NCBI GenBank assembly: GCA_964613815.1
Contig: CAZTKG010000001.1
Location: 136,895-200,894 of the forward strand
Reading direction: 5' to 3'
DNA length: 64,000 bases
Source of the DNA: an uncultured Gammaproteobacteria bacterium
GTDB lineage: Bacteria > Patescibacteriota > Patescibacteriia > UBA9934
Shown here: piece after piece, positions 13,939-63,735 of the stretch
Position numbering within the stretch: position 1 is the stretch's first letter
How the letters are laid out: each line of letters opens with the position of its first letter
Position numbers and translations under genes: made by a program
The notes under the pieces: model-generated
Databases searched by the model: none
What the model was told of the DNA's origin: nothing
Seen by the model: only the letters and a program-made list of their open reading frames with translations

Positions 13939-13987
13939 ACAATTTACCCTCCCATCTCGACCCTGCGGAGAGATCTCTCCATAAGGT
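13939..13987. repeat. REP-A palindromic element, short form (CTCCCATCTCGACCCTGCGGAGAGATCTCTCCATAAGGTCGAGATGGGAA)
   Basis: Inverted repeat sharing the CCCATCTCGACC...GGTCGAGATGGG arms with 14 other copies in the window. Confidence 0.85.
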
Positions 13988-14013
13988 CGAGATGGGAACG
14001 AAGGAGCTGTGTT

Positions 14014-14042
14014 CATTGTTCATAAAAAATCCTGCATATTTA
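14014..14042 (-). terminator. Rho-independent terminator downstream of the GNAT gene (ATCCTGCATATTTATGCAGGAT hairpin with flanking A/T runs)
   Basis: Perfect 9-bp stem and a T-run on the minus strand. Confidence 0.55.
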
Positions 14043-14056
14043 TGCAGGATTATGCG

Positions 14057-14596
14057 TCATGCAGCTGCGTAGAGCACGCCGCTGAGATGATCTTCGATGC
14101 GCTCTCCGTCGAGTCGTAGGACAAATCGTCGGTTGGGTTTGTAGTCGCTCTCGTACCAGATGAGACGGAATCCCATTGAACGGTAGAGCGTTCTGGCTGC
14201 CACTCTTCCTGGCTCGCTGATGAGCCTGAGGTAAGGCATGCCTCGCTCGGTGGCGAGCCTGATCAGCTCGGTCATGATGGCTCTGCCGAATTGGCGACCG
14301 CGATAGTCTGGGTGCACCAGGACATCGAAGATCTCGCCTTCTGGACTGCAGTCCTTGAGTCTGCCGCCTGCAATTGCCTCGCCGGTGGCATCGTCAACGA
14401 TCACGACCGTGGTAACCCGCCTGACTCCGGCGAATGTCTGGGCATATCGTATGCATGCCTGCCGTGCCAGCCACTCGTAGTTCTCGTGGTCCTTGTCGAG
14501 GATGAGCGCTGCGAGTTCGTGGCCGTGCTCTGCGATGAGGCGCTTGAGTAGGTGACCTGTCTCGATCTGCAGGGTGAAACCGGATGGTAGAATCAT
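14057..14596 (-). CDS. GNAT family N-acetyltransferase
   Basis: Acetyl-CoA motif VLVHPDYRGRQFGRAIM. Start taken at MILPSGF..., which is preceded by AGGAGG. The ORF track extends 6 codons further. Confidence 0.8.
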   Translation of the reverse strand: MILPSGFTLQIETGHLLKRLIAEHGHELAALILDKDHENYEWLARQACIRYAQTFAGVRRVTTVVIVDDATGEAIAGGRLKDCSPEGEIFDVLVHPDYRGRQFGRAIMTELIRLATERGMPYLRLISEPGRVAARTLYRSMGFRLIWYESDYKPNRRFVLRLDGERIEDHLSGVLYAAA

Positions 14597-14671
14597 GTTC
14601 CCTCCTTGGGACAAAGACCGTGCCCTGTTTTTTGACTTTTGTCAATAAAAAAGCACCAAGCTCAGCTTGGG

Positions 14672-15430
14672 CTAGAAACGAATGGTCGTGCGGCCACCGG
14701 TGATCACGACTCTCTTTCTCGCGACGATGTCGCTTCCGTCTGCGAGCAAAACGGTGACAACCTCTCCCTGCTCGAAGCCGATGAGTTCGACGCTGCCAGA
14801 AGTGACGAGCGTTGCGAGGACTGGCTGGAAGTTGTTGTGGAAGACAATGCTAACGATGGTGGGCGGCTTGCCGTTGACGAGGAGGCCTACGGTGTAGTTG
14901 CAGTGACGCAGGTTTTTGAGCGTCACAACCGAGTCGTCTGCTGGAGCCTTGATGCGCGCAGAGAGGCTCCGGCCACGTTTGCGGATGGTCTGCGTGGTTC
15001 TGATCTCTGGGCAGCTATGCGCGCCGGGCTGGTCTTCGAACCAGTCTTGGATGTGTTCCCAGTTTGCTCCGGTGCGATGTCTGCTTGGCACACTGCAGAT
15101 TCTTGGCTCGATCTCGACCAGGCACTTGAAGCTGTCTACTGCCTGGTCGAACCGGAGGCTGTAGAGATGCCGCTTTGCCTGCGCGAGGGCAGTGATTGCT
15201 TCTTGGCAGCGTCGCTGACTGCATCCGTCGCGACACATCAGGTGCACGAAGCTCTCTGCCTCTCCAGTTGCGATGGCGAGGATTCTGATGAGGTCTTCGT
15301 GGTTCCCCGAGCGCTGGTAGGCCTCTGCGGCACGGACTTGGCTCTTGAGAGCCGTGTGGACCACGAGCACCGGATCGTCTCCAGCTATCGCGGATGTGAG
15401 GAGTGATAAAAGAAGCAATAATACGTTCAT
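14672..15430 (-). CDS. Secreted hypothetical protein (252 aa, signal peptide)
   Basis: MNVLLLLLSLLTSAIAG signal peptide. Own promoter (TTGACA-N17-TAATCT) and AGGAG ribosome-binding site. GC-rich. Confidence 0.5.
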   Translation of the reverse strand: MNVLLLLLSLLTSAIAGDDPVLVVHTALKSQVRAAEAYQRSGNHEDLIRILAIATGEAESFVHLMCRDGCSQRRCQEAITALAQAKRHLYSLRFDQAVDSFKCLVEIEPRICSVPSRHRTGANWEHIQDWFEDQPGAHSCPEIRTTQTIRKRGRSLSARIKAPADDSVVTLKNLRHCNYTVGLLVNGKPPTIVSIVFHNNFQPVLATLVTSGSVELIGFEQGEVVTVLLADGSDIVARKRVVITGGRTTIRF

Positions 15431-15451
15431 GAACTCTCCTGTGGCGCGCTG

Positions 15452-15480
15452 AGATTAGTCTGTTTTCTTGATTTTGTCAA
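15452..15480 (-). promoter_or_regulatory. Sigma70-like promoter for 14672..15430: TTGACA-17 bp-TAATCT on the minus strand, followed by an AGGAG ribosome-binding site
   Basis: Reverse complement of 15431-15500 reads ...TTGACAaaatcaagaaaacagacTAATCT...aggagagttCATG. Confidence 0.5.
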
Positions 15481-15514
15481 GGATAAAAACAACCCGCCAG
15501 ATGGCAGGTATGAT

Positions 15515-16162
15515 CTATTCTACGCTGATGACGCCCGTCCTGAGCCCATCTTCTGTTCCAATGCAGGCGTAGTAGCCGGGGTTGCCGTGGACGATGATCT
15601 GGTGGGCGAATACCGTGCTCTTGGAGTTCCTGGGATTGCGACAGTCTCTCTCCCAGGAGTAGACGACGCGGACGCGGCCATGTGTTGAGACGATGACGAC
15701 AGCTTCTACATAGCGGTGCTGATCGCCGATGCGTTCGATGTGCCAGTCGCGGTACTTGTATGGCTCATCTTTGATAATGGTCAGCAGATCGTTTCCGATG
15801 ACCCCTCTGCGCTTTGAGCCTTCTGGGACGCATTCGCCGGACAGGGCCGGCTGTGCGCCGTAGAGGCTAGCGAGTGCCATGCTGTTATTCCCGGCCGCGT
15901 GCTCAGCGAGCATTTGCTGAAGATAGCCCTCGAGGTCGTCGGCATTCCCGAGACACTCTTGCCCGTAATTCCGGATCCATGCGCGACCGAGGCTTGCCGC
16001 TTGCTGGATCTGAGCGTTGAATCGGCTTGTGTTGTTGTCGTCCAACGCCTTCTGTGCGTTGGAATGGATTGCCACCATCTGAATAGCGAGTCTGTCACGG
16101 CGCTCTTCTGCGTCGGTCACGATGGAGGCGAGAGCGGATGAAATGAGAAATAGCCAGAACAT
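15515..16162 (-). CDS. Secreted hypothetical protein (215 aa, signal peptide)
   Basis: MFWLFLISSALASIV signal peptide. Upstream TTGACA-N17-TATCAA and AAGGAG ribosome-binding site. Confidence 0.5.
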   Translation of the reverse strand: MFWLFLISSALASIVTDAEERRDRLAIQMVAIHSNAQKALDDNNTSRFNAQIQQAASLGRAWIRNYGQECLGNADDLEGYLQQMLAEHAAGNNSMALASLYGAQPALSGECVPEGSKRRGVIGNDLLTIIKDEPYKYRDWHIERIGDQHRYVEAVVIVSTHGRVRVVYSWERDCRNPRNSKSTVFAHQIIVHGNPGYYACIGTEDGLRTGVISVE

Positions 16163-16185
16163 ATTCTCTCCTTGCGTGCGTGTCG

Positions 16186-16214
16186 TTGATACCTTGTTTT
16201 CTTCTTTTTGTCAA
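16186..16214 (-). promoter_or_regulatory. Sigma70-like promoter for 15515..16162 (TTGACA-17-TATCAA on the minus strand)
   Basis: Reverse complement of 16163-16225: ...TTGACAaaaagaagaaaacaaggTATCAA...aaggagagaatATG. Confidence 0.5.
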
Positions 16215-16234
16215 TAAAGTCCCACTCCCCACCC

Positions 16235-16312
16235 TCCCATCTCGACCTTGCGGAGAGATCTCTTCGGATGCCGGATACTGCAAGATCTCTCCGCAAGGTC
16301 GAGATGGGGGGG
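16235..16312. repeat. REP-A palindromic element
   Basis: CCCATCTCGACCTTGCGGAGAGATCT...AGATCTCTCCGCAAGGTCGAGATGGG with an about 25-nt central spacer. Confidence 0.85.
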
Positions 16313-16370
16313 ACTGGATGAGGCCTTGTATAAAAAAGAACCACGACTTGCGTGGTTTACGACGATGTCA

Positions 16371-16952
16371 TCAGAGACCGAGCATCCTGCCGATACGGAC
16401 GAAGGCGCGGTAGAAGTTGTGCTGCCGCGTGTACTGACGCGCCTTGTCGGCGTAGATGTCGCACATCACGCCCGCCGTGCACTGGCGCTCGGCGTTTGCG
16501 ATGAGGCCTGCCATCAACTCATCGAGCTCGTCGTCCATGTCGCTCTCGAGGAGATGCACAGCGAGGGTCTTGGCCTCGTTGAGGTCGACCTGGACCGAGT
16601 TGGGTTCCGCGTGTGTCCCCACGTCTTCGAGGGTCTTGATGAGGCGAGCCATGGCGTTGAAGATGTCGTCGCTGAGCACTGCGACCTCTGTCCACCTGTT
16701 GCAGATGATCATTGCAGAGGTCCCGGCGTCGACATGCTGGTCACCGTAGGCATGGTTCCAGTGCCATACCTCCCGGCAGAACCTTGCCACTTCGGCGCGC
16801 GGGCTGATGTCGGTCTGACCCTGGGCCATCATGAGTTTGGCGTCGAGGACCTGCGTGGTCATCTCCGAGAGAATCTGGTCGGTGGCGTGGCTGCACTCGG
16901 CAGCCGAGGCAGCGGCCCATGAGAGGAGGAGGGTGAAGAGGAGGTTGAGCAT
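16371..16952 (-). CDS. Secreted hypothetical protein (193 aa, signal peptide)
   Basis: MLNLLFTLLLSWAAASAAEC signal peptide. Upstream TTGACA-N17-TAACCT. Confidence 0.5.
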   Translation of the reverse strand: MLNLLFTLLLSWAAASAAECSHATDQILSEMTTQVLDAKLMMAQGQTDISPRAEVARFCREVWHWNHAYGDQHVDAGTSAMIICNRWTEVAVLSDDIFNAMARLIKTLEDVGTHAEPNSVQVDLNEAKTLAVHLLESDMDDELDELMAGLIANAERQCTAGVMCDIYADKARQYTRQHNFYRAFVRIGRMLGL

Positions 16953-17021
16953 GTGCTTCTCCGTGTTGAATGAGCGATGGAAGGTTAGCGGAAATGTTGC
17001 TTTTTGTCAATTGTTTTGTGC

Positions 17022-17048
17022 TAAAAAACAGCCGCTTTGGCTGTTTTT
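17022..17048 (-). terminator. Rho-independent terminator after the major pilin gene (AACAGCCGCTTTGGCTGTT hairpin with a T-run)
   Basis: Hairpin CAGCC-GCTTT-GGCTG flanked by A6/T6 runs. Confidence 0.6.
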
Positions 17049-17051
17049 TGC

Positions 17052-17555
17052 TTATTTCGCTACCGTGATCTCTTCCTTATTCTCACTCTCACATGACCTG
17101 ATGTGAACGATGCCCGTTGAGTCTCTTTGAAGCGTATACCCGCTTCCGTTTGGCGAGCCTGTACTCCATTCTATTGCTCCGGATCCGCTGACCGGGATGC
17201 TTCCGAGATACCCTTCTGTTTTGAGGAAGTCGAGGTTGACGCAGTGGCCTGAGCTTGTGACTGGGACGTCGCAGGTTGAGTTGCAGCCTGAGGTCATGCC
17301 GCTTGCGATCATGTAGACTTCGCCGGCGTTCAAGTTTGCGATGTTGTCGTGGTAGCTGCCGCCGTTGTCGATCTGGTCTACCTTGATAGCGTTTAGCGTT
17401 TCTACGATGTCTGCCACTCGCTTAGCGTCTCTTGCGTCTGCGAATCTTGTTGCCGGATCGAGGGCGACGAAGACGATGCCTGCAAGCGTTGCGATGATCG
17501 CGATGACGATGAGGAGCTCAATGAGCGTGAAGCCTTTTTGGTTTGATGGGTTCAT
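17052..17555 (-). CDS. Type IV pilin (major pilin-like), prepilin-type N-terminal cleavage/methylation domain
   Basis: MNPSNQKG|FTLIELLIVIAIIATLAGIVFVAL: canonical class-III signal with Gly, then F+1 and E+5. Confidence 0.8.
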   Translation of the reverse strand: MNPSNQKGFTLIELLIVIAIIATLAGIVFVALDPATRFADARDAKRVADIVETLNAIKVDQIDNGGSYHDNIANLNAGEVYMIASGMTSGCNSTCDVPVTSSGHCVNLDFLKTEGYLGSIPVSGSGAIEWSTGSPNGSGYTLQRDSTGIVHIRSCESENKEEITVAK

Positions 17556-17586
17556 ACGGGTCTATTTGATGGAAAGTATATCATGA

Positions 17587-25443: not shown

Positions 25444-25480
25444 CCCCTCCCATCTCGACCTTGTGGAGAGATCTTTTACT
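25444..25480. repeat. REP-A half element (left arm only), fused to the REP-B copy that follows
   Basis: CCCCTCCCATCTCGACCTTGTGGAGAGATCT with no matching right arm; immediately followed by CCCATCCTGAGG... Confidence 0.7.
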
Positions 25481-25612
25481 CCCATCCTGAGGAGAGGGCG
25501 TGAAGGCGATGGACGGAAGGATCTCACGGCACGGCGCACTCTTTCGGCATGGACGTTGCTGTCCGCACGGGATCCTTCCGTCGCGCTAGGGCTGGCGCGA
25601 CTCAGGATGAGG
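25481..25612. repeat. REP-B palindromic element (about 130 nt, nested inverted repeats: CCCATCCTGAGGAG...GACGGAAGGATCTC...GGGATCCTTCCGTCG...CTCAGGATGAGGG)
   Basis: Intergenic between rpoD and pilB. Homologous to copies at 42153, 48640 and 50047. Confidence 0.8.
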
Positions 25613-29428: not shown

Positions 29429-29480
29429 TCCCATCTCGAGCGGAGTCGAGAGATCTCTCCACTGCGGTCGAGATGGGAGG
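29429..29480. repeat. REP-A palindromic element (short form) in the livG-livF intergenic region
   Basis: TCCCATCTCGAGCGGAGTCGAGAGATCTCTCCACTGCGGTCGAGATGGGAGG. Confidence 0.85.
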
Positions 29481-33261: not shown

Positions 33262-33333
33262 CTCCCTTCCCATCTCGACCTTGTGGAGAGATCTTGCCGC
33301 CATCAGATCTCTCGGCGTTGCTCGAGATGGGAG
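33262..33333. repeat. REP-A palindromic element
   Basis: CCCATCTCGACCTTGTGGAGAGATCTTGCCGCCATCAGATCTCTCGGCGTTGCTCGAGATGGGAGG. Confidence 0.85.
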
Positions 33334-35037: not shown

Positions 35038-35115
35038 TTTTCCCATCTCGACCTTGTGGAAAGATCTTGCTGCTATTCGAGTTCTCGGAGATCTCTCCAC
35101 AAGGTCGAGATGGAA
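35038..35115. repeat. REP-A palindromic element (preceded by a partial duplicate arm at 35015-35037)
   Basis: TCCCATCTCGACCTTGTGGAAAGATCT...AGATCTCTCCACAAGGTCGAGATGGAACG. Confidence 0.85.
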
Positions 35116-35168: not shown

Positions 35169-35675
35169 GTGGAGGCTCTTTTGACCGATTCCGTACCCGC
35201 AGACCTTCTCGATGCTGGACTTGCCTTCATGGTTCAAGTCCTCACACTTCAACAGCAAGGCCTGCAGCTGACCAATAAGCAGGCTCACGCGTTTACAACC
35301 ATCATGATCGAACTTGGTATCCTGTCCGATCTCAGCACGGCCATGACGGATGAAGACGCCGCGCGACTTCGCGAGCTCGTTAGCCGTGTCGACCGCGAGT
35401 CAGCTGAAGCAGCGAGACCCACGGTTCTCAACGCCGGCATCCACACGCGGACCTGGTGTGAGGAGATCCGCTGCCCGACGTGCCGTGCCAAGCTTCGGCT
35501 CACGCGGAGCTCGATCCATCTATGGACCGGTGCTGATATGAACCATGGCAGAAGCGCCGTGTGCTACCTCTGCCCGAGCTGCAATATCTGGCACGAGTTC
35601 CTGCCGTACCATGAGCGCGTCGGCGAGCTCCCGCAAATGCCGAGCGGGATGCACATCCGGCTGCTGGAGCGCTGA
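35169..35675 (+). CDS. Hypothetical protein with C-terminal zinc-ribbon (CPTC...CPSC)
   Basis: Helical N-terminal domain followed by CPTCRAKL...CYLCPSCN. GC-rich. Confidence 0.45.
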   Translation: MEALLTDSVPADLLDAGLAFMVQVLTLQQQGLQLTNKQAHAFTTIMIELGILSDLSTAMTDEDAARLRELVSRVDRESAEAARPTVLNAGIHTRTWCEEIRCPTCRAKLRLTRSSIHLWTGADMNHGRSAVCYLCPSCNIWHEFLPYHERVGELPQMPSGMHIRLLER

Positions 35676-35718
35676 TCGCCTGCGAGGCGGTCTTTTTCTT
35701 TTATGAGGCCCGCCTATT

Positions 35719-35783
35719 TCCCATCTCGACCTTGTGGAGAGATCTGATGGCTGCAGGATCTCTCCACAAGGTCGAGATGGGAG
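35719..35783. repeat. REP-A palindromic element between convergent genes
   Basis: CCCATCTCGACCTTGTGGAGAGATCTGATGGCTGCAGGATCTCTCCACAAGGTCGAGATGGGAGG. Confidence 0.85.
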
Positions 35784-37621: not shown

Positions 37622-37690
37622 AGACCAGTCCTCCCATCTCGACCTTGTGGAGAGATCTCTCGACTACGCTCGAGATGGGAGGACTGGTCT
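37622..37690. repeat. REP-A palindromic element (full palindrome including the outer GACCAGTCC/GGACTGGTC arms)
   Basis: Between the convergent 37058..37591 gene and lepA. Confidence 0.85.
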
Positions 37691-39523: not shown

Positions 39524-39611
39524 CATTCCATCTCGACCGAGCGCAGTGAGTGGAGAGATCTTGCCGCTCATGAGCTTGCAGGGATCTCTCGACTACGCTC
39601 GAGATGGGAGG
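39524..39611. repeat. REP-A palindromic element, immediately upstream of the lepA start
   Basis: TTCCATCTCGACCGAGCGCAGTGAGTGGAGAGATCT...GGGATCTCTCGACTACGCTCGAGATGGGAGG. Confidence 0.8.
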
Positions 39612-41461: not shown

Positions 41462-42682
41462 TTATTTTTGGATAATTGCTGAGCCAATGAGCTCATCTTC
41501 TTTGTAAAATGCGACAAACTGCCCTGGGGCGACTGCCCATTGCGGGACCTTGAATGTGACAGTGAGTTGATCTTCGATGAATTGGTATTCGCAGTCTTGC
41601 AGCTCCTGACGATAACGAATGCGGGCTTTAAGGGGAGTGTTTTGGTTGGTTTTGATGGCGCCCTTGGTTGTTTCTGTGATGTTTGTTGCAATGATCGTCG
41701 TCTTGAGGAGGATTTGATCTTCGCGATGCACTACAACGAGCTCGTTTGTGCCTGGACGTTTTTCTGCCACGTAAAGAGGATCACCGCCGCCAATGCCGAG
41801 GCCGTGGCGTTGGCCGATGGTGTAGTAGGCGTGGCCCTTGTGGGTTCCGAGGATGTCGCCGGCGGCGTTGATGATGTTTCCTGGTGATGGCGGGATTTGG
41901 TCGCTGAGGAATTCTTCTAGGGTGATGTGACCGACGAAGCAGAGGCCTTGGCTATCCTTCTTTGTTGCGACGGATAGGCTGTGCGTCTCTGCGATGCTGC
42001 GGACTTCTGATTTTTCGATGTTACCGATTGGGAACATCACTTTTTTTAGTTGGTCTTGCGTGAGACGGCAAAGGAAGTAGGATTGGTCCTTGTTTTTGTC
42101 GATACCAGCGAGGAGGTGGACTAGCTCACCTCCTTCCGATGCGCCTTCTCCTCTCCCATCCTGAGGAGGGGGATAGTTGCCCCCGACGGAAAGATCTTGT
42201 GCGGATGGCAACGTCCCTGCCGCGCGGCATGAGATCCTTCCGTCCGTCGGCTGGCGCTCTCCCTCCTCAGGATAGGAGGCAATATCAGCTGCGTTGAGTA
42301 TGCGCGCGTAGTGGCCTGTTGCGAGATAGTCGCAGCCCAAATCCTCTAACTGATCGAGAAGAAGGCCGAACTTCATATATTGATTACAGAGCACGTCTGG
42401 ATTTGGTGTTCGGCCGGCGGCGTATTCGTCTACCATGTATTGATAGACTTTTTCGCGGTACTGCTCTTCGAAGTCGAAGGTGTGGAGCTCGATATCTAAT
42501 TGCGCGGCAACCCGCATCGCATCTCGACGCTCTGCACGCCAAGTACATTCGCTGCCTGGGATGTTTTCTGACCAGTTTTTCATGAACGCGCCGACGACCT
42601 CGTAACCTTGTTCCAATAGCAAAACAGCCGACACACTTGAGTCGACGCCACCGCTCATAGCCAGGAGAACGCGTTTTTTCAT
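41462..42682 (-). CDS. mnmA: tRNA-specific 2-thiouridylase MnmA, carrying an in-frame REP-B insertion
   Basis: PP-loop LAMSGGVDSSV; conserved ...LATGHYARI and ...KNKDQSYFLCRL. Between them lies about 45 aa (DIASYPEEGERQPTDGRISCRAAGTLPSAQDLSVGGNYPPPQDGRGEGASEGG) that is the translation of REP-B. Confidence 0.85.
   Translation of the reverse strand: MKKRVLLAMSGGVDSSVSAVLLLEQGYEVVGAFMKNWSENIPGSECTWRAERRDAMRVAAQLDIELHTFDFEEQYREKVYQYMVDEYAAGRTPNPDVLCNQYMKFGLLLDQLEDLGCDYLATGHYARILNAADIASYPEEGERQPTDGRISCRAAGTLPSAQDLSVGGNYPPPQDGRGEGASEGGELVHLLAGIDKNKDQSYFLCRLTQDQLKKVMFPIGNIEKSEVRSIAETHSLSVATKKDSQGLCFVGHITLEEFLSDQIPPSPGNIINAAGDILGTHKGHAYYTIGQRHGLGIGGGDPLYVAEKRPGTNELVVVHREDQILLKTTIIATNITETTKGAIKTNQNTPLKARIRYRQELQDCEYQFIEDQLTVTFKVPQWAVAPGQFVAFYKEDELIGSAIIQK
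42153..42279. repeat. REP-B palindromic element inserted in-frame inside mnmA
   Basis: TCCCATCCTGAGGAGGGGG...GACGGAAAGATCTTGTGCGGATGGCAACGTCCCTGCCGCGCGGCATGAGATCCTTCCGTCCGTCGG...CCTCCTCAGGATAGGAGG. Confidence 0.85.
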
Positions 42683-42727: not shown

Positions 42728-42800
42728 CTCCCATCTCGACCTTGTGGAGGGATCTGATTGCGGCAGGTGCAAGATCTCTCCACAAGGTCGAGATGGGAGG
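42728..42800. repeat. REP-A palindromic element
   Basis: TCCCATCTCGACCTTGTGGAGGGATCTGATTGCGGCAGGTGCAAGATCTCTCCACAAGGTCGAGATGGGAGG. Confidence 0.85.
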
Positions 42801-42844
42801 AATGAGAATGACAGGAAACAAAAAAGCCCTGCTTGCTGCAGAGG

Positions 42845-43240
42845 CTACGGACGATCGTCTTTGGGGAAGTCGATCAGGATGTTGCAGGTCCCGTAGAAAC
42901 CAGCGCAGACCTGCGGGTCGGTGCGACCGTTATCGCAGACGTGCTCGGCGACGGGGATGGTGTCGGCGTACTCGATCCAGGTGACCGGGCCGTCCGTGAT
43001 TTTTTGGATGAAGTAGGTGACGTTCGGGCCGCTCATGGCGAGCGCATAGCCCGGATGCCCCATCCCGGAGGTGCTTTCGAGGTAGATGTCGAACTCGCCC
43101 CAGTCGATGATGGTGACCGCTGCGCGAGGCGGGGCCTGCACGCGCTCCTCGTTGACGAAGATCGTGTTCACGGGCCAGGCCTTGACCCTGGGAGCGTCGC
43201 CAGCGGAGACTGTGAGGGAGAGAAGGAGCAATGGGATCAT
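42845..43240 (-). CDS. Small secreted hypothetical protein (131 aa)
   Basis: Signal peptide MIPLLLLSLTVSAGDA, 4 Cys. Confidence 0.45.
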   Translation of the reverse strand: MIPLLLLSLTVSAGDAPRVKAWPVNTIFVNEERVQAPPRAAVTIIDWGEFDIYLESTSGMGHPGYALAMSGPNVTYFIQKITDGPVTWIEYADTIPVAEHVCDNGRTDPQVCAGFYGTCNILIDFPKDDRP

Positions 43241-43297
43241 GTCGTCTCCGTGTGAAGTGACGGTTTAATCTAACACTTCTTTAAAGATATGTCAAGA

Positions 43298-43538: not shown

Positions 43539-43612
43539 TTCCCATCTCGACCTTGTGGAGAGATCTTTGGATTTCGGAGGCTACAGGATCTCTCCACAAG
43601 GTCGAGATGGGA
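43539..43612. repeat. REP-A palindromic element
   Basis: CCCATCTCGACCTTGTGGAGAGATCTTTGGATTTCGGAGGCTACAGGATCTCTCCACAAGGTCGAGATGGGAG. Confidence 0.85.
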
Positions 43613-43677: not shown

Positions 43678-43905
43678 ATGCGACAAGTTGTCAGCCTCTC
43701 TTTAGCTCCCGCAGATGTCAAAAAACTCAAAAGGCGCGTGAAGGAGCGTGGCCTTGCTTCATCTAGCGCATATGTGAAGCAGCTCCTCGACGAAGACGAG
43801 AATCTCATCTCCGCAGACGAGCTTGAATCCATCATTAAAGAAGGAGATGCAGAGTATGATCGCGGAGAGACGGTTTCTGCAAAATCTGTTCTCGATCTTC
43901 TATGA
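43678..43905 (+). CDS. Type II antitoxin (RelB/ParD/Phd-like, 75 aa)
   Basis: Small acidic protein immediately upstream of, and ATGA-overlapping, a RelE/ParE-like toxin. AT-rich. Confidence 0.55.
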   Translation: MRQVVSLSLAPADVKKLKRRVKERGLASSSAYVKQLLDEDENLISADELESIIKEGDAEYDRGETVSAKSVLDLL

Positions 43906-44174
43906 TCGTTCGTGATATTAAATTCACAAAAAGATTTATCAAGGACCTCTCTGGGCTCAGTGAGACTGATCGTGACTTAGTTGCGAAAAAGGAGTCTATC
44001 TTTAGATCCAACCCCCTTCATCCTTCTCTTCGGCTTCATCGACTCAAGGGCAATTTGTCTGGCGTGTGGTCTATTTCTGTGACAAATAAGATTCGCATAA
44101 TTTTCAAACGGAAGGACGGAGGAGTTATCCTGTTTTACTCTGTTGGAAAACACGACATTTACAAAAACCTATAA
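43902..44174 (+). CDS. Type II toxin, RelE/ParE superfamily (90 aa)
   Basis: HRLKGNLSGVWSISVTNKIRIIFKRKDGGVILFYSVGKHDIY matches the RelE/ParE C-terminal fold signature (h.LkG...W..R...YRiiY...). Confidence 0.7.
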   Translation: MIVRDIKFTKRFIKDLSGLSETDRDLVAKKESIFRSNPLHPSLRLHRLKGNLSGVWSISVTNKIRIIFKRKDGGVILFYSVGKHDIYKNL

Positions 44175-46076: not shown

Positions 46077-46192
46077 AATGCGTCTGCGTGTCATCCTGAG
46101 GCACGAAGGACCCATTCGGTTGGCACTACCTATATCGGTCGACGTCGATCGTGGGCACGTATGCAGCCGAATGGATCCTTCGTGCCTCAGGA
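46077..46192. repeat. REP-C palindromic element (GTCATCCTGAGGCACGAAGGACCCATTCGG...CCGAATGGATCCTTCGTGCCTCAGGATGAC), a full long inverted repeat
   Basis: About 21-bp perfect terminal arms plus inner CATTCGG/CCGAATG arms. Related to REP-B (shared CATCCTGAGG core) and to partial copies at 58940 and 62868. Confidence 0.8.
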
Positions 46193-46223
46193 TGACACAG
46201 GGAGGATCTGCTATAATCCACGC

Positions 46224-48294: not shown

Positions 48295-50010
48295 CTAATC
48301 CACCACACTCCCTCCAAACGCTAACGCGAGGTCGTGGAGGTTTTTTTCGTCTTCTGAGAGTTCGAGGATTGGTTCGATTTTCACGGAGCCCTGCATGACC
48401 TTGCCTACCGCTTCTTCGATGATGTCGAGATGCTTGCGGGCGTTACAGGTTTCGAAGTGAAACGCGTGCGTGAATGAGAGGACAACGACGTTTCCTCGGA
48501 TAGATGTTGGCTTTGCGGACTTGAGGACTAAGGGTAGGGCAACGCTTCTTTTCGCGACCAGCTCGCAGCAGCGGCCCCATTTTGCGGCAAGGTCTTCTGC
48601 GGTGAATTTGGCTAGCGGGGCTTCATCTGTTGTTTTTTTTTGAGGTTCTTCATTCCCGTCCTGAGGAGGGAGAGCTGAGCCGACTGACGGAAGGATCTCT
48701 TCCGACTTCCCCATATCGACCGGTGTGGAGATATCTTGCATTTTGGCCGCGGCCTGAGATCTCTCCGCAGGGTCGAGATAGGAGGCGGGAGTTTGTGTTG
48801 GCGGTGATGACTGCGGCGATCGTGATGGCTGTGCCGCGTGGGGGGAGATCCTTCCGTCGAGGGGGGTATCCCTCGACTCAGGATGGGAGGGAGGCGGAGA
48901 CTGTGTCGGTGATAGCAGCTGTGCTGACCCTTCTTCCTCGCAGAATTCTACAAATGCAATTTCTATTGGGAGCTGTGGGAAGAGCTCGTGTGCCGGTCTT
49001 GATCTTGCGGTGAGCAGGAGGTCGATGAGTTTTCTTGCGCGTGCGGACGGGAGCGCGGTTGCGGATGATTTGAGGTTTGCGAGCGCTTGTTCGTCGTAGC
49101 GTTCTGAAAGGTTGCCTCCGAGGCCGGTGAGCATGACGTCGCGGACGTATTCGATGAGTTCGTCGAGGAGGTGGCGGACGGAGGTACCTGCTGCTGTGGC
49201 CTCGGTGAGCTTGTCGATGGAGGCTTTTGCGTCCGATGTGGCGAGGGTTGTGGTCATTTGTGCAACGAGATCGGCGTGGGTCTTTGGAAGGACAAGCGAG
49301 GCGTCGTCTGTGGATATCTCGTCGAGGCCGAGTGCGAGGACCTGTTCGAGGATGCTTTCTGCGTCTCGGAGGCAGCCTTCTGAAAGGCGGGCGATGGATG
49401 GGTAGACTTCGTCGGCGATCTTGACACCTTCTTTTTCTGACAGCAGCTTTAGGCGACCGATCATGCCTTTCATGGAGATTCTGTGAAAATCAAAACGCTG
49501 ACATCTGGAAAGGATGGTTTGCGGGATTTTGTGGAGCTCGGTTGTGGCGAGGATGAAGATAACGTGTGCTGGAGGTTCTTCGAGGGTTTTGAGGAGGGCG
49601 TTGAACGCTGAGGTTGAAAGCATGTGGACCTCGTCGATGATGAAGACTTTTTTGCGATCTCCGCCTGGAGAGACGCGGGCGGCTTCGATGATGTTTTCTC
49701 GGACGTTGTCGACACCTGTGTGAGACGCGGCGTCGATTTCTGCGACGACCATTGTTCGGCCGTTTGTAATGCCTTCGCAGGACTGGCACGTACCGCAGGG
49801 CTCGTAGCCGTCTTTTAGCTCTCCGCAGTTGACGGCTTTTGCGAGGAGGCGGGCCGTGGTCGTCTTCCCTACTCCGCGCGGGCCGGAGAAAATGTAGGCA
49901 TGAGCGACTTTGTCTTGTTTTATTTGGTTTTGAATGGTTTTGGAGACGTGCTCTTGGCCGCAGACGTCTGCGAATGTTTGTGGGCGGTATTTTCGATAGA
50001 GTGAAGGCAT
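48295..50010 (-). CDS. dnaX: DNA polymerase III subunit gamma/tau DnaX, carrying in-frame REP-B plus nested REP-A insertions in the linker region
   Basis: Start MPSLYRKYRPQTFADVCGQEHV (ATG 50010; the track ORF extends 52 codons into the upstream REP-B). Walker A GPRGVGKTT, Zn module CGTCQSC, SRC motif, conserved C-terminal domain. About 88 aa of translated repeat sits between domain III and the C-terminal domain. Confidence 0.85.
   Translation of the reverse strand: MPSLYRKYRPQTFADVCGQEHVSKTIQNQIKQDKVAHAYIFSGPRGVGKTTTARLLAKAVNCGELKDGYEPCGTCQSCEGITNGRTMVVAEIDAASHTGVDNVRENIIEAARVSPGGDRKKVFIIDEVHMLSTSAFNALLKTLEEPPAHVIFILATTELHKIPQTILSRCQRFDFHRISMKGMIGRLKLLSEKEGVKIADEVYPSIARLSEGCLRDAESILEQVLALGLDEISTDDASLVLPKTHADLVAQMTTTLATSDAKASIDKLTEATAAGTSVRHLLDELIEYVRDVMLTGLGGNLSERYDEQALANLKSSATALPSARARKLIDLLLTARSRPAHELFPQLPIEIAFVEFCEEEGSAQLLSPTQSPPPSHPESRDTPLDGRISPHAAQPSRSPQSSPPTQTPASYLDPAERSQAAAKMQDISTPVDMGKSEEILPSVGSALPPQDGNEEPQKKTTDEAPLAKFTAEDLAAKWGRCCELVAKRSVALPLVLKSAKPTSIRGNVVVLSFTHAFHFETCNARKHLDIIEEAVGKVMQGSVKIEPILELSEDEKNLHDLALAFGGSVVD
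48640..48905. repeat. Composite repeat inside dnaX: REP-B left arm (48640-48710), a degenerate REP-A (48711-48784), about 60 nt, and the REP-B right arm (about 48845-48905)
   Basis: TCCTGAGGAGGGAGAGCTGAGCCGACTGACGGAAGGATCTC | CCCATATCGACCGGTGTGGAGATATCT...AGATCTCTCCGCAGGGTCGAGATAGG | ...GAGATCCTTCCGTCGAGGGGGGTATCCCTCGACTCAGGATGGGAGGG. Confidence 0.8.
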
Positions 50011-50046: not shown

Positions 50047-50190
50047 CGAGTCTGACATGCCTCCCATCCTGAGGAAGGAGAGCGCCAGCCGACGGACGGA
50101 AGGATCTCGTGCCGCGCGGCATGGACGTCGATGTCCGCACGGGATCCTTCCGTCGGGGGCGGCCATCCCCCTCCTCAGGATGGGAGCTCA
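50047..50190. repeat. REP-B palindromic element in the dnaX 5' leader
   Basis: CCTCCCATCCTGAGGAAGGAGAGCGCCAGCCGACGGACGGAAGGATCTCGTGCCGCGCGGCATGGACGTCGATGTCCGCACGGGATCCTTCCGTCGGGGGCGGCCATCCCCCTCCTCAGGATGGGAGC. Confidence 0.8.
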
Positions 50191-52970: not shown

Positions 52971-52998
52971 ACCACCGAGAGATCGGTGGTGTTTTTTT
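52971..52998 (+). terminator. Rho-independent terminator (ACCACCGAGAGATCGGTGGTGTTTTTTT)
   Basis: 8-bp stem, GAGA loop, T-run. Confidence 0.6.
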
Positions 52999-53002: not shown

Positions 53003-53078
53003 CCCCCATCTCGACCTTGTGGAGAGATCTTGCAGTCCTGCCGTGATCAGATCTCTCCACAAGGTCGAGATGGGAGCG
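53003..53078. repeat. REP-A palindromic element between convergent genes
   Basis: CCCCCATCTCGACCTTGTGGAGAGATCTTGCAGTCCTGCCGTGATCAGATCTCTCCACAAGGTCGAGATGGGAGCGG. Confidence 0.85.
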
Positions 53079-53132
53079 GGGAGATGATGAACATCTTTTG
53101 ACAGTTGAAAAGCGGCCATGTGGCCGCTTTTC

Positions 53133-56167: not shown

Positions 56168-56216
56168 TCCCATCTCGACTGAAATGGAGAGATCTCTCCG
56201 CAAGGTCGAGATGGGA
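56168..56216. repeat. REP-A palindromic element, short form
   Basis: TTCCCATCTCGACTGAAATGGAGAGATCTCTCCGCAAGGTCGAGATGGGAAT. Confidence 0.85.
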
Positions 56217-56222
56217 ATATGA

Positions 56223-58343: not shown

Positions 58344-58404
58344 TCACTATTGATCTCTGCCCATTTTTCTGCTAGCCTTAGCACGCACCTCCCACGGAGA
58401 ACCC

Positions 58405-58902: not shown

Positions 58903-58939
58903 TCTCTCGTGAGGCAAGTGCCTCACTCGCCCAGCAATG

Positions 58940-59232: not shown

Positions 59233-59251
59233 TCTTTGCCAAGGAGGCAAC

Positions 59252-59758: not shown

Positions 59759-59870
59759 ACTTCCTTTTTTGGGGAGTTTTTTTATTTTCTCATCGTCTCA
59801 TTCCCTATTTCGCAGCACGCTACATGGAGGTAGGTTGAATGACGGAGAGCGATGATTCAGCGACCCACGC

Positions 59871-59899
59871 TTGACAACCCCTCCATTTTTTGCTAGCAT
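59871..59899 (+). promoter_or_regulatory. Sigma70-like promoter TTGACA-17-TAGCAT for 59949..60401
   Basis: Read directly. Confidence 0.55.
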
Positions 59900-59948
59900 T
59901 CTCAGCTGTTGATACAGTAAAATCAGCCCTTTCCACGGAGACAACGCC

Positions 59949-60401: not shown

Positions 60402-60404
60402 CTC

Positions 60405-60432
60405 TTCGCCCGTTCTTGGGCGGTTTTTTTAT
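60405..60432 (+). terminator. Rho-independent terminator
   Basis: CGCCCG-TTCT-TGGGCG plus TTTTTTT. Confidence 0.6.
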
Positions 60433-60486
60433 TGATACCTCTTGGCACCATCACCCTTTCATGGGTGATTTTTTTCCTAGATCTCC

Positions 60487-60518
60487 TTGACATTTCTCGT
60501 GTTTTCCTGTTTTATAAC
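60487..60518 (+). promoter_or_regulatory. Sigma70-like promoter TTGACA-18-TTTATAAC for 60543..61019
   Basis: Read directly. Confidence 0.5.
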
Positions 60519-60542
60519 CCTCCGTTCATTCTAGGAGCACCC

Positions 60543-61019
60543 ATGGAAATCCATCTCAATTCCGTTGACTCACTATTCACCAAACGCGGCCGCGCTTTTC
60601 TCGCGACGTTTGGCTGCTTGATGATGTGCCTGCTCATCATGGCTGCGTTCAGCGCGAGCGATAAAAGATCCGCGACGCTCCTCGTGATCCCACTTGGGCT
60701 GATGGGAGGATATGTTCTCGACTACTACATGAAGCGAGAAAGTGAGCATCAACTCGTCTTTGACGCTATGCAAGCGCAGATTCCCATGCTTGCCTTGGAT
60801 CTTCGGGGGCTGGAAGCAAATGACCGACGATTTCCGGATCGCGTGAAGCACCTTCTTTCTTGCGCAGTTCTCAGCATGGAACCTGCTGACCTGATCCTTG
60901 TTCTGGAGCGCGCATGCGTTTTTCATCCCGTGCACGAGTATATTCAGACCTTGAATCGGTCGAATGTCTCGCCCGCATCGCTTGCGCGTATGATGGAAGA
61001 GATCCTGGATCACCCATGA
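60543..61019 (+). CDS. Small two-TM membrane protein (158 aa); array member 5
   Basis: AGGAG-6 nt-ATG. The track ORF starts at 60432. Confidence 0.5.
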   Translation: MEIHLNSVDSLFTKRGRAFLATFGCLMMCLLIMAAFSASDKRSATLLVIPLGLMGGYVLDYYMKRESEHQLVFDAMQAQIPMLALDLRGLEANDRRFPDRVKHLLSCAVLSMEPADLILVLERACVFHPVHEYIQTLNRSNVSPASLARMMEEILDHP

Positions 61020-61118
61020 GCTCTCAACGTGATCGCACCTCCCGGTAACGGGCGGTTTTTCTTTTTCCTTGACGCCTTCCTAATAAACTGCTAATGTTCC
61101 ACGTTCTTTGGAGCTATC

Positions 61119-61397
61119 ATGTTTCTTCCCATTCACTTGACTATTCCCACGGCACTGCTCTGGATCGTGGTCGGCTGCTTCCTTGCCCACGGTGTCTGGC
61201 TTGGTCATCATGTTTTCTGGGCCGCCATCGCTGTGCATGTCGTGATGGGGATCACCGGAGCCCTGTGCGTATTCAAGCTCACCACCGAAAACGAGCGTTC
61301 TCGCATGTTCATGCGCCTCTTTTCTGTGATCTCATCTGATCCCGGACTTGATGCGTCCAAGCTTCCGCGTCCTCCCCTTGAGGTTGATGACCCCTGA
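61119..61397 (+). CDS. Small two-TM membrane protein (92 aa); array member 6 (truncated form)
   Basis: Promoter TTGACG-N17-TAATGT, ribosome-binding site GGAG, terminator ACCCCCAAACCGGGGGT. Confidence 0.45.
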   Translation: MFLPIHLTIPTALLWIVVGCFLAHGVWLGHHVFWAAIAVHVVMGITGALCVFKLTTENERSRMFMRLFSVISSDPGLDASKLPRPPLEVDDP

Positions 61398-61401
61398 TGA
61401 C

Positions 61402-61427
61402 AACCCCCAAACCGGGGGTTCTTTTTA
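61402..61427 (+). terminator. Rho-independent terminator
   Basis: AACCCCC-AAAC-CGGGGGTT plus a T-run. Confidence 0.6.
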
Positions 61428-61518
61428 TCAATCATATCGCTCGCCTACTGGTAGACGATATGCTTGACTTTTTGGCTATTTTGACCTAATCTCTGGCTAC
61501 CTGTTCTTTGGAGGTGCG

Positions 61519-62103
61519 ATGAAGCACATCAAGTATCGTCGAGTCCTTCAGGTCATGCTGGGACTGATCCTGCTCCTGTGTATCGTCAGCCACATTGTGA
61601 AAGGCGTAGACCTCGCCCTCTTCAGCGGCCTGATCACTGCTGTTGTTCTCTGGAAGCTACGGAAGCACCCGCTTGACCATCTTCCTGGGCTGCTGCGATC
61701 ACGATATGAGCAACTGCTTGGAGATCGCTATCTGCCGCTGCATCGTGATCAGCATCCGTTTATGAATCAGGCGCTGCGTGGACCAGCAGCAGATCTTCCG
61801 ACAGAGCTGTATGCCCATCATCTTTTCGAGAGCGCCTCTCGACGCGGAGTCGTTATCGGTCAGATGTTTGCGAGGCTACTTCGACTTGCCGACGAGCAGA
61901 TGAACGATGGAAATCCTGCATTTGCAGACAAGCTCCTCGATGAGGCAGCGCGGATCGTTGTCGCCTTGAAGCCTGATGTTGCGCAGCAAGTTGTCGAGGT
62001 CGAAAAGCTCGCTCCGATCGTACGCGCTATGATGACTCCTCAGCGGTATGACAAGGTTCCCCGCCCGTGGGCTGAAGCGCTTTCGGCGGCGAGTGGGGAC
62101 TGA
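61519..62103 (+). CDS. Small two-TM membrane protein (194 aa); array member 7
   Basis: Promoter TTGACT-N17-TAATCT, ribosome-binding site GGAGG, terminator GAGCCGATTTCGGCTC plus T-run. Confidence 0.5.
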   Translation: MKHIKYRRVLQVMLGLILLLCIVSHIVKGVDLALFSGLITAVVLWKLRKHPLDHLPGLLRSRYEQLLGDRYLPLHRDQHPFMNQALRGPAADLPTELYAHHLFESASRRGVVIGQMFARLLRLADEQMNDGNPAFADKLLDEAARIVVALKPDVAQQVVEVEKLAPIVRAMMTPQRYDKVPRPWAEALSAASGD

Positions 62104-62105
62104 TT

Positions 62106-62131
62106 CTGAGCCGATTTCGGCTCTTTTTTTA
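62106..62131 (+). terminator. Rho-independent terminator
   Basis: GAGCCGA-TTT-CGGCTC plus TTTTTTT. Confidence 0.6.
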
Positions 62132-62189
62132 TTGACTTACTTCATTATTTGTGCCATCTTAATGATCTGCACCTTCCCCTGGAGAGACT

Positions 62190-62819
62190 ATGAAATCCTC
62201 CCTTTTCCGCCTTGCCGCTTGGATGGTCCCCTCGATCGTTCCGGCGCTCGGGGCGTCCGCGTCTGCGTGGGCTGTGTTCGAGGTCGGCGGTACCACTCCG
62301 CTTCTGTTGCTTGGCGCGTTTCTGTTTTGCTGGATCATCAGCATTGGGTTCTCGAAGAGCCTTTTGAACGTGATGAGCACGACGGATATCCTCGTTTCGT
62401 CTGATCGGATGATGCGTGAGCATATTGGTCGCATCATGACGTTCTCACATCGCCAGTTTGACCATCTTCCGCGTGATCTTGACGAGGCGCTTCGGACAAT
62501 GATTGAGCGACGTGACGTGCATCGCGCGACGATCCTCATTGCCATGACGGACTGTCTGGACATGATGGCGCGTCATGCTGACCGCCCTGGCTCTGAAATC
62601 CTGATCCGGCATTTGGGGATTGTGTTCATGACGATTGCTGGACGGCAGAGCACGGATGTCGTTCGTCGACTTCTTACTGAGACGCCGAGCGCTTCGGCAG
62701 CAATGAGGGCCGGCGTTGCCGCGTTTGGCGGCATGGAAGGCTTTGCCATCTATGGCTCGAATGCGATCGGCAAGATCGTGCGGGACTATTACGACTCACT
62801 TCCGGCGAACGCGGCGTAA
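62190..62819 (+). CDS. Small two-TM membrane protein (209 aa); array member 8
   Basis: Ribosome-binding site GGAGAG. TM hairpin. Terminator GACCCGACTGGGTC plus T-run. Confidence 0.5.
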   Translation: MKSSLFRLAAWMVPSIVPALGASASAWAVFEVGGTTPLLLLGAFLFCWIISIGFSKSLLNVMSTTDILVSSDRMMREHIGRIMTFSHRQFDHLPRDLDEALRTMIERRDVHRATILIAMTDCLDMMARHADRPGSEILIRHLGIVFMTIAGRQSTDVVRRLLTETPSASAAMRAGVAAFGGMEGFAIYGSNAIGKIVRDYYDSLPANAA

Positions 62820-62830
62820 GCTGCTATGCG

Positions 62831-62856
62831 TTGACCCGACTGGGTCTTTTTTTCTT
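62831..62856 (+). terminator. Rho-independent terminator
   Basis: GACCC-GACT-GGGTC plus TTTTTTTC. Confidence 0.6.
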
Positions 62857-62867
62857 TGTCGCAGCTG

Positions 62868-62950
62868 TCATCCTGAGGCACGGAGGATCCATTCTTCGCT
62901 GAAGCTTCGAAGGGTTCATATGCCCCCGGCATATGAAAAAAATCACCACC
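62868..62950. repeat. REP-C partial copy (TGTCATCCTGAGGCACGGAGGATCCATTCTTCGCTGAAGCTTCGAAGGGTTCATATGCCCCCGGCATATG...)
   Basis: The left arm matches the REP-C at 46077. The inner part matches the inverted 58940 copy. Confidence 0.65.
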
Positions 62951-62963
62951 GCGGGTGCGGTGG

Positions 62964-63599
62964 CTAGGTGTCCCTCTTTGCCGGCGGAGGCGCGTCGAGA
63001 TCGTTCTTGATGACATCGACCAGGCGCTTGGTCTCGAGCTTGTGGAGCTCGAAGTCCTTACGTGCCTGCTTGAGGTCAGACCAGGTTCGGATGTGGCGGA
63101 GCTGCGCGTGCTTGATCCATGCGTCTCTCAGGAGCATGTATGCGCCGTTGATCGTTGAGTGGTGTGTCCCGCGCACGAGTGGTGTATCGCCAAAGTGCTT
63201 GAGATAGTCCTTTGCGGCAACGCGATTCCTGTGCCACCCGTCCAGAGCCTTGGTCATGTCGAGGAGAATCTTGAGATAGGAGTCCCCGTTTTCGTAATCG
63301 GTGAGATCAGCATCTACACTGTCGAACTCGATGTCGATGACGCGTACCAAGACTTCTTCCATGAGCTCTGTACGGAACTCTGGCTCGTCCTGCGTATCCG
63401 ATCTGATGGCGGAGTTGGCACGGATCGTGATGAGCTTCGCGGTCTCGTCGTAGTGATGGAGCGACTCCATCGTGAGTGCGAAGGCGCCGTCGGCGAGGCG
63501 TTCGGAGCGCTGATACATGCGCTCGGCTGAGACGCCAGCGAGGAAGACAGTGATGAAGATCAGGAAGCCGATAGCTGCCTTGACTGCGTTTCTGTTCAT
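62964..63599 (-). CDS. Membrane-anchored/secreted hypothetical protein (211 aa from MNRNAVKAAIGFLIFITVFLAGVSA)
   Basis: Promoter TTGACA-N17-TAAAAA and ribosome-binding site GGAG upstream. Signal-anchor helix. Confidence 0.45.
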   Translation of the reverse strand: MNRNAVKAAIGFLIFITVFLAGVSAERMYQRSERLADGAFALTMESLHHYDETAKLITIRANSAIRSDTQDEPEFRTELMEEVLVRVIDIEFDSVDADLTDYENGDSYLKILLDMTKALDGWHRNRVAAKDYLKHFGDTPLVRGTHHSTINGAYMLLRDAWIKHAQLRHIRTWSDLKQARKDFELHKLETKRLVDVIKNDLDAPPPAKRDT

Positions 63600-63624
63600 G
63601 ACTTTCTCCAGAAAAGAACGCTTG

Positions 63625-63653
63625 TTTTTATCATTTTTTTGCGGATTTGTCAA
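63625..63653 (-). promoter_or_regulatory. Sigma70-like promoter TTGACA-17-TAAAAA on the minus strand
   Basis: Reverse complement of 63600-63665: ...TTGACAaatccgcaaaaaaatgaTAAAAA...ggagaaagtCATG. Confidence 0.5.
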
Positions 63654-63659
63654 TGCCTT

Positions 63660-63735
63660 TCCCCATCTCGACCTTGTGGAGAGATCCTGCGCTCTTGATG
63701 ACCGCTAAGATCTCTCCACAAGGTCGAGATGGGAA
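63660..63735. repeat. REP-A palindromic element
   Basis: CCCCATCTCGACCTTGTGGAGAGATCCTGCGCTCTTGATGACCGCTAAGATCTCTCCACAAGGTCGAGATGGGAAGC. Confidence 0.85.

Follow-up and report, generated by a model that had tools for sequence, protein, structure and literature searches.

Paired CCC-tagged hairpins in a candidate phyla radiation genome resemble the CGTC-tagged REPs and the hairpins that flank Ssn-family nuclease genes

The 64,000-nt stretch of contig CAZTKG010000001.1 analysed here (hereafter, the window) carries 15 loci of REP-A, a family of repetitive extragenic palindromes (REPs), in the genome of an uncultured bacterium that we place in the candidate phyla radiation (CPR) because the best named relatives of its LepA protein belong to Candidatus Uhrbacteria (73-75% identity). 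REP-A fits best as a variant of the CGTC-tagged REPs, also known as Ssn-related motifs (SRMs), in which the tag is CCC and a G·A pair interrupts the stem. We propose, with moderate confidence, that its copies are REP-type DNA hairpin modules that belong by their architecture to the CGTC-REP/SRM superfamily and provide the site for an Ssn-type nuclease encoded elsewhere. The assignment to the Ssn system is one of architecture and not of a demonstrated partner, since the tag is CCC, the published SRM search string is not matched and no Ssn gene turned up in the ~84 kb of sequence covered for this organism (the window and 10 kb on either side of it).

The repeat unit is not the 75-nt palindrome but a single arm of about 28 nt (TCCCATCTCGACCTTGTGGAGAGATCTC) that forms an independent mini-hairpin. 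From its 5' end, an arm consists of the tag (T/C)CCC, the stem strand ATCTC, GA, a variable tip, GA, the stem strand GAGAT, an invariant C and a final T or C. The resulting stack comprises 5 bp, a G·A/A·G step, 1-2 further bp and a tip of 3-5 nt; counting the G·A pairs gives 8-9 stacked positions. Tips read CCTTGTG (“type 1”), GCGnAGTC (a C-GNA-G triloop with one bulge) or are 16-45 nt long. Tags in the window are TCCC (22 arms), CCCC (4) and TTCC (2), and all tails begin with C (CTC in 12, CTT in 10, CTG in 4 and CCT in 3). Across 21 distinct arms, 97.3% of the cells in the small hairpin are paired, five of its seven pairs show changes on both sides and the covariation score was reached by none of 500 shuffles, slid registers pairing at 22-65%; some of these arms were gathered with a pattern demanding three complementary stem positions, to which mismatch-bearing arms were added. 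Pairing is kept across the stem variants ATCTC/GAGAT, ATCCT/AGGAT, ATATC/GATAT and ATTTC/GAAAT. In the same alignment the stem starts with A-U in 20 of the 21 arms (columns 6/27) followed by U-A in all 21 (columns 7/26), and the C directly after GAGAT is invariant.

Arms are mostly joined head-to-head, with the tags outside in 14 of 14 pairs, around a spacer of 0-22 nt that is recognisably related among copies but far less conserved than the arms. The initial annotation had all copies sharing the same two arms, which is correct for eight pairs only; five or six others combine arms of different inner sequence, for instance CCTTGTG with GCGTAGTC. Such mixed pairs have an internal loop in the long hairpin and retain the small hairpin in each arm, and their existence is what identifies the arms as independent modules. 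The GGGAGG end, described as constant, is found in about half of the copies, the remainder ending in GGGAAC, GGGGGG, GGGAGA, GGGAGC, GGGAAT or GGGAAG. Folded as a whole, the pairs are very stable (-55 to -60 kcal/mol, z about -9). Searches of the window, of one element and of 18 Anaerococcus loci against Rfam, at gathering and at permissive thresholds, returned only tRNAs and miRNA-precursor-like noise from long hairpins.

Five other identities were considered for REP-A and dropped: invertible promoter, integron attC site, DNA uptake sequence, CRISPR and k-turn. The grounds were spacers of 0-22 nt, the lack of attC core sites, a hairpin that covaries, the lack of an array structure, and G·A pairs that are symmetric with no 3-nt bulge.

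The closest published description is that of the CGTC-tagged REPs (Di Nocera, De Gregorio and Rocco 2013; PMC3733652). These elements are described as having the tag CGTC, TGTC or CCTC, a stem starting almost always with A-T then T-A, few loop types and a short tail (CCA); they occur mostly as head-to-head dimers in hosts from five phyla, apparently mostly Alphaproteobacteria, and are not associated with tyrosine transposases. The article also lists Neisseria dRS3 and Rickettsia RPE-4 and RPE-6 among the members and mentions some copies in replication or repair genes. REP-A shares with them the unpaired 5' tag ending in C, the A-T/T-A stem start, the few recurrent tip types, the unpaired 3' tail starting from C, the head-to-head dimers, the extragenic location and, in the sequence searched, the lack of a linked tyrosine transposase.

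A nuclease is known for related hairpins in Neisseria. SsnA, a single-domain GIY-YIG protein of 94 amino acids, recognises the NTS hairpin only in single-stranded DNA (ssDNA), which it cleaves a few bases upstream of the hairpin; binding depends most on the C that follows the palindrome, and cleavage on the three nucleotides that precede it (Chenal et al. 2025; PMC11893778). The ssn genes are flanked by their own motifs, the Neisseria system modulates natural transformation, and a role for SRMs is known only in Neisseria (PMC11893778). With a consensus of the family as query, tblastn yielded 35 records of the plasmid collection annotated as GIY-YIG nuclease family protein, among them an N. gonorrhoeae gene with NTS copies around it and a Pfam-confirmed gene on a Planktothrix plasmid (L174, 598-882). 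The latter is flanked by TGTC-ATTCT-GA-GTGAAAC-GA-AGAAT-CTC and TGTC-ATCCT-GA-...-GA-AGGAT-CTC, hairpins that share the G-A...G-A design and the CTC tail with REP-A and with a second family of the window, REP-B. A covariance model built only from arms of the window, of the sequence preceding it (L058) and of Anaerococcus (model R1) finds each of the six hairpins at the Planktothrix gene, with E between 4.5e-5 and 1.2e-3. In about half of 33 viral contigs encoding Ssn relatives, the gene is likewise bordered directly on either side by tagged hairpins, several of which have a CTTGT loop as in type 1 of REP-A. We note that the Planktothrix Ssn-family gene sits inside a defence island: on the P. 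agardhii plasmid NZ_LR882964 (18250-19713), the gene and its hairpins lie between an MmeI-type restriction-modification gene and DISARM drmA.

Several observations weigh against the proposed assignment. Model R1 gives no match to Neisseria NTS. The REP-A tag is CCC and not GTC, and in Neisseria it is those three bases that control cleavage. Checked by hand, REP-A fails the SRM string HGTCWYN(0-2)YYVSBRHN(0-5)WNVSBRGN(0-2)RNCYNB, from which it departs at GTC and at the stem positions of the G·A/A·G interruption; two other modules, family C of the window and the widespread ATTGC module, likewise fail at stem positions. Regular-expression and profile searches found no Ssn or GIY-YIG gene, either in the ~84 kb of the organism or in Anaerococcus loci totalling about 300 kb, a sample in which a single-copy gene would probably be missed. 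Pfam searches of 20 window open reading frames (ORFs), including 35169-35675 and 42833-43255, both bracketed by REP-A, found no nuclease and no transposase. Finally, most Ssn homologues are from Gram-negative bacteria (PMC11893778).

The 26-nt arm CCCATCTCGACCTTGTGGAGAGATCT has 21 matches in the window at up to three mismatches and none in any of 100 shuffles. A search of the window with a covariance model built from the arms raises the total to 29 arms at 15 loci (chance expectation, 0), namely 14 inverted pairs and one single arm, or about one copy per 4 kb. The 15 copies counted in the initial annotation thus stand, as does its general picture of REP-type extragenic palindromes arranged at high density in inverted pairs, with nesting and with fusion to a second family. 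The loci are as follows, a strand being assigned to the single arm only:

13950..13997, REP-A pair with no spacer, arms overlapping at AGATCT; between convergent genes, ~20 nt past a terminator
16235..16309, REP-A pair with a spacer of 21 nt; end of a JGI contig
25448..25475, + strand, REP-A single arm; a REP-B element (about 25479-25612) starts 4 nt later
29429..29478, REP-A pair without spacer, inner sequences GCGGAGTC and CCGCAGTG; two livG/livF-like ABC-ATPase genes flank the 77-nt gap that holds it
33268..33332, REP-A pair of unlike arms, type 1 and GCAACGCC
35041..35115, REP-A pair upstream of ORF 35169-35675
35719..35782, REP-A pair between convergent-gene terminators (35674-35692 on the + strand, 35828-35811 on the - strand)
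37632..37680, REP-A pair, type 1 and GCGTAGTC; inside the loop of a bidirectional terminator, a 15-bp hairpin (AAAAAGACCAGTCCT / AGGACTGGTCTTTTT)
39526..39609, REP-A pair of a long-tip arm and a GCGTAGTC arm; between the terminator of the upstream gene and the lepA start
42729..42798, REP-A pair upstream of mnmA
43540..43612, REP-A pair following tRNA-Gln and its hairpin
48709..48783, diverged REP-A pair, in frame in the dnaX coding sequence, nested in REP-B (about 48650-48890)
53004..53075, perfect REP-A pair between convergent-gene terminators (52971-52990, 53107-53132)
56168..56216, REP-A pair with inner sequences CTGAAATG and CCTTGCG; in an operon gap
63661..63734, REP-A pair

Nor is the family confined to the window, confinement having been named as a sign of a local duplication or an assembly artefact: a further pair lies ~8 kb before position 1 (L058, 19078-19126) and a further arm beyond position 64000 (L057, 2216-2244). 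An artefact is also refuted by independent assemblies of the same organism (one from JGI and three from ENA samples), which are 99.96-100% identical over the region with no indels; for the same reason, the search for empty REP-A sites by comparison with these assemblies found none. One JGI contig terminates within the copy at 16.2 kb, an assembly break at the repeat. Positions 1-12000 of the window carry no REP-A arm; this segment has a GC content of 46-51% (against 52-57%) and an opposite GC skew, and codes for large proteins with no Pfam matches, a signal peptidase and a PAS histidine kinase.

Two sister families share the window with REP-A, and the three together make up about 2.5% of it. 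The bare design common to them, CAT-xyz-GA...z'y'x'-ATC, occurs 40 times in the window as against 0.9 times in shuffles. One REP-B copy lies at the start region of dnaX and another inside the dnaX linker. Family C has the canonical TGTC tag of the CGTC-tagged REPs, so that two tag classes, GTC and CCC, coexist in this genome. The copies, with no strand assigned, are:

50058..50189, REP-B element of about 130 nt with arms CCC-ATCCT-GA-(25-30 nt tip)-GA-AGGAT-CTC
about 25479-25612, REP-B copy
about 42150-42281, REP-B copy
about 48650-48890, REP-B copy
46089..46197, family C pair, TGTC-ATCCT-GA-GGCAC-GA-AGGAT-CCA, with the canonical TGTC tag and a CCA tail
62866-62891, family C single arm

Outside this organism, the exact 25-mer of the arm was found only in Anaerococcus, a gut and skin genus unrelated to the CPR host of the window. 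A scan of 185,579 species, each represented by a single genome and the window organism not among them, returned 30 stretches from seven named Anaerococcus species and one uncultured isolate, all of about 30% GC, and a scan of a metagenome collection that likewise lacks the window organism returned only Anaerococcus-like contigs. The 26-nt arm core is letter-identical in the 53% GC CPR genome and in the 30% GC Anaerococcus. The Anaerococcus arms occur singly, in pairs with AT-rich spacers of 40-280 nt, or in tandem arrays of alternating orientation, and 95 of 114 have the tag ACCC. In front of a conserved gene, nine of nine orthologous sequences carry an identical 27-nt arm, with 79% identity at the neighbouring third codon positions and 69-81% in the flanks; a second orthologous locus likewise has an invariant type-1 arm, beside a partner arm that is decaying. 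Such invariance amid diverged neutral sites indicates that the sequence of the arm, and not merely its pairing, is under constraint or concerted evolution. Other routes to further hosts were unproductive: searching the literature with REP-A sequence strings gave only chance primer matches, BLAST of a REP-A pair against plasmids and phages gave no match, and six-frame translations of the arm, compared with a protein database in case spurious ORFs had been recorded from other hosts, gave no candidates.

What is unusual about REP-A is that it is identical across phyla, in Anaerococcus, and invariant at orthologous loci. Letter-perfect conservation across very different genomes seems to hold for this class of hairpins in general: the 24-mer CATTGCGAGCGAAGCGAAGCAATC of a sister module was found in 109 viral or proviral IMG/VR stretches (L064-L172) from many samples and of 35-71% GC, mostly in inverted pairs, with the tag CGTC (67) or TGTC (48) and the tail CCA or CTC. 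An IS110-family element lies within a REP-A-type arm of the Anaerococcus-like metagenome contig OKWK01000740 (L047, 6959-8564), where its gene (Pfam DEDD_Tnp_IS110 and Transposase_20) splits the arm as GAGATCTCT | TCTCCACTCATTGCATTCGGTCGAGATGGG; this insertion parallels the targeting of dRS3 and REPs by IS110-type recombinases (PMC11893778). In some Anaerococcus species (L009, L013, L049; L010, 4660-4860), the tip of a type-2 arm is enlarged by 100-190 nt of inserted sequence, composed of further small repeats. Hairpin tips seem to be preferred insertion points, as also suggested by REP-A within REP-B and within a terminator loop. In Anaerococcus jeddahensis (L010, 3950-5320), 1.4 kb of non-coding DNA is built from tandem units of about 300 nt; every unit has arms in alternating orientation and a recurring CTTTAGCAAT box about 25 nt upstream of the arms.

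The strongest competitor to an Ssn-type nuclease is a sequence-specific ssDNA- or hairpin-binding protein that is no Ssn homologue, the CCC modules then forming a separate system whose likeness to the Ssn hairpins reflects convergence or older ancestry. We regard this as unlikely. The tag of REP-A is never GTC, neither in the window nor in Anaerococcus, the exact module is restricted to two lineages from which no Ssn is reported, and the searches for an Ssn gene described above came back empty, all of which speak for a distinct binder. The remaining design (stem start, 3' C, CTC tail, G-A...G-A, CTTGT and GNA tips, head-to-head arrangement) nonetheless matches that of hairpins flanking Ssn genes, and family C bears the canonical TGTC tag in the very same window.

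That the pairs are REPINs, non-autonomous elements copied by a single-copy REP-associated tyrosine transposase (RAYT, of the HUH/Y1 type) encoded elsewhere, is in our view a rather improbable alternative. Two inverted REP hairpins around a less conserved spacer, present in many near-identical copies without target-site duplication, are what a REPIN would look like, and RAYT groups exist in many classes including Clostridia (PMC5581495). The guide tetranucleotide expected at the foot of the hairpin is missing, however: neither GTAG nor GTGG (GT[AG]G) occurs on either strand of any REP-A arm. The arms match instead the CGTC class, which was specifically found not to flank tyrosine transposase genes (PMC3733652). 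A phmmer search with E. coli RayT against all ORFs of the window and of every locus, covering the ~84 kb of the organism and ~300 kb of Anaerococcus, gave no match, and neither a Y1 nor any other transposase gene was seen in that sequence. REPs of RAYT systems are, moreover, species-specific (PMC6006769), yet this arm is identical across phyla. Mobilisation by a RAYT, as suggested in the initial annotation, is thus not supported by the tag or the architecture, nor by any homologue in the sequence searched.

The genomic context of the copies bears on a possible role in RNA. The intergenic placement described at the outset was borne out, 14 of the 15 loci being intergenic and the sole exception lying in dnaX. 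Most copies are downstream of genes and most lack a T-run; at least five (35720, 53005, 37633, 13951 and 39527) directly follow a canonical terminator (hairpin plus T-run) or are enclosed by the terminators of a convergent gene pair. Since REP-A copies adjoin canonical terminators, the nearby genes already have their own, and the copies are probably additions to terminators and not terminators themselves; several are probably outside transcripts. These positions tell against the terminator or stabiliser function first attributed to the family. More broadly, we doubt that REP-A acts mainly at the RNA level, as terminator, 3'-end stabiliser or RNase III site, and is kept for that reason. The great stability of the pair hairpins and their frequent location behind genes would suit such a role, and E. 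coli REPs have effects of this kind (PMC6006769). Apart from the missing T-runs and the adjoining terminators, the two orientations are equivalent within a pair, no Rfam family is matched, SsnA-type recognition is of ssDNA only, and 26-letter identity between genomes of 30% and 53% GC along with decay of the partner arm would not be expected from selection on hairpin stability alone. A classical miniature inverted-repeat transposable element (MITE), that is, an internally deleted insertion sequence (IS) of the DDE-transposase type with 26-bp terminal inverted repeats, is suggested by little besides inverted repeats around a variable centre and is highly improbable, and the earlier label “MITE-like” is best abandoned, given that REP-A loci show no target-site duplications (their flanks share only a T/A that extends the palindrome), that single arms are conserved alone, that arm types are mixed, that the stem within the arm covaries, and that no IS with such ends was found in plasmid, phage or viral collections.

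The dnaX copy had been recognised as nested in that gene; more precisely, a REP-A pair lies within a REP-B element that itself lies in the linker between the ATPase and C-terminal domains of DnaX, all in frame. Its left arm retains the stem through a compensatory change (ATATC/GATAT). In the nearest available relative, whose LepA is 76% identical and which is too distant for alignment of intergenic DNA, a diverged REP-A-like pair occupies the same DnaX linker, its stems being maintained by compensatory changes (ATTTC/GAAAT); DnaX has 507 residues there and 590 or 623 here, depending on the start called. No second copy besides the one in dnaX was found in the 21.8 kb of this relative, which argues that the family predates the species and expanded in the present lineage. 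A run of nine A residues is present ~11 nt after the REP-B/REP-A insert (~48610-48630, - strand, in dnaX) and absent from the relative (L056). It recalls the A9 transcriptional-slippage site that produces the short form of DnaX in Thermus. Elsewhere in the window, a HigB/YafQ-like toxin gene with a small upstream partner adjoins the cluster of tRNA-Gln and REP-A (43678-44174 region; L031, 5346-5842).

The explanation that we favour, recognition by an Ssn-type nuclease, may be outlined as follows. The arm would fold whenever the DNA is single-stranded, as in replication, repair or uptake by natural transformation, and would then be bound sequence-specifically by an Ssn-family nuclease, a small protein with a GIY-YIG domain only whose gene lies elsewhere in the genome and which would cut a few bases 5' of the tag. 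The pairing of nuclease and hairpin could account for the extreme constraint on the arm sequence and for the spread and maintenance of the copies, Ssn genes being flanked by their own hairpins much like an insertion sequence; at the level of the host, it may serve to restrict or shape the recombination of incoming ssDNA. We infer that such a nuclease exists in this genome, that it recognises the CCC variant and that it is responsible for the spread of this variant. CPR bacteria have small, streamlined genomes and are thought to rely on DNA uptake, and a role in handling incoming ssDNA plausibly fits a bacterium so dependent. A bolder conjecture, to which we attach little probability, is that the CCC module represents a separate hairpin-nuclease specificity class that has recently moved between a CPR lineage and Anaerococcus or is shared with an Anaerococcus-like host on which the CPR bacterium lives, and that in either case it would act as a 26-nt “self/host” mark controlling the ssDNA taken up. 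If true, it would amount to a recognition code tying an episymbiont to the DNA of its host.

Although CPR genomes are small and streamlined, three hairpin families take up about 2.5% of this stretch. The findings extend the Ssn-motif/CGTC-REP class to Patescibacteria and to Anaerococcus, for neither of which we found a report of the class, and add to it a CCC tag and a G·A-interrupted stem as novel features. Should the cognate nuclease exist, its specificity for cutting ssDNA would be new and of a type in demand for molecular tools, and it would offer a handle on how CPR bacteria police incoming DNA. Identity over 26 non-coding nucleotides between genomes of such different GC content shows with unusual clarity that a repeat is under constraint, and so does the invariance of the arm at orthologous loci of Anaerococcus amid decay of its partner.

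Among known systems, the REPINs and BIMEs of Escherichia and Pseudomonas resemble REP-A in their inverted doublets, less conserved spacer, high copy number, extragenic location and use as target by an IS110-family element, and the tandem alternating arrays of Anaerococcus are a further likeness; REP-A differs from them in having no GTAG guide and no RAYT in the sequence searched. With the Rickettsia RPEs it has in common a palindrome inserted in frame in an essential gene, where it adds residues to the DnaX linker and leaves the frame intact, although this is a single genic copy in 64 kb and the family is overwhelmingly intergenic. Compared with the CGTC-tagged REPs, the tag is (T/C/A)CCC and not CGTC, TGTC or CCTC, only the last C being common; the stem comprises 5 bp, a tandem G·A and a tip helix of 1-2 bp, against a continuous 8-9 bp with a loop of 4-5 nt, a length that REP-A reaches when its G·A pairs are included; the tail is CTC or CTT and not CCA; and the hosts are a CPR bacterium and Anaerococcus, against apparently mostly Alphaproteobacteria in PMC3733652. 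The dnaX copy is nonetheless reminiscent of the occasional copies of CGTC-tagged REPs in replication and repair genes. From the Ssn system, REP-A is set apart by its tag and by the lack of an ssn gene in the sequence examined here. Like NTS and SRM, on the other hand, it is an oriented hairpin with a conserved upstream triplet, here CCC, and a conserved C after the palindrome, and the copies of NTS and SRM, which number in the hundreds, are likewise clustered between genes and rare inside them.

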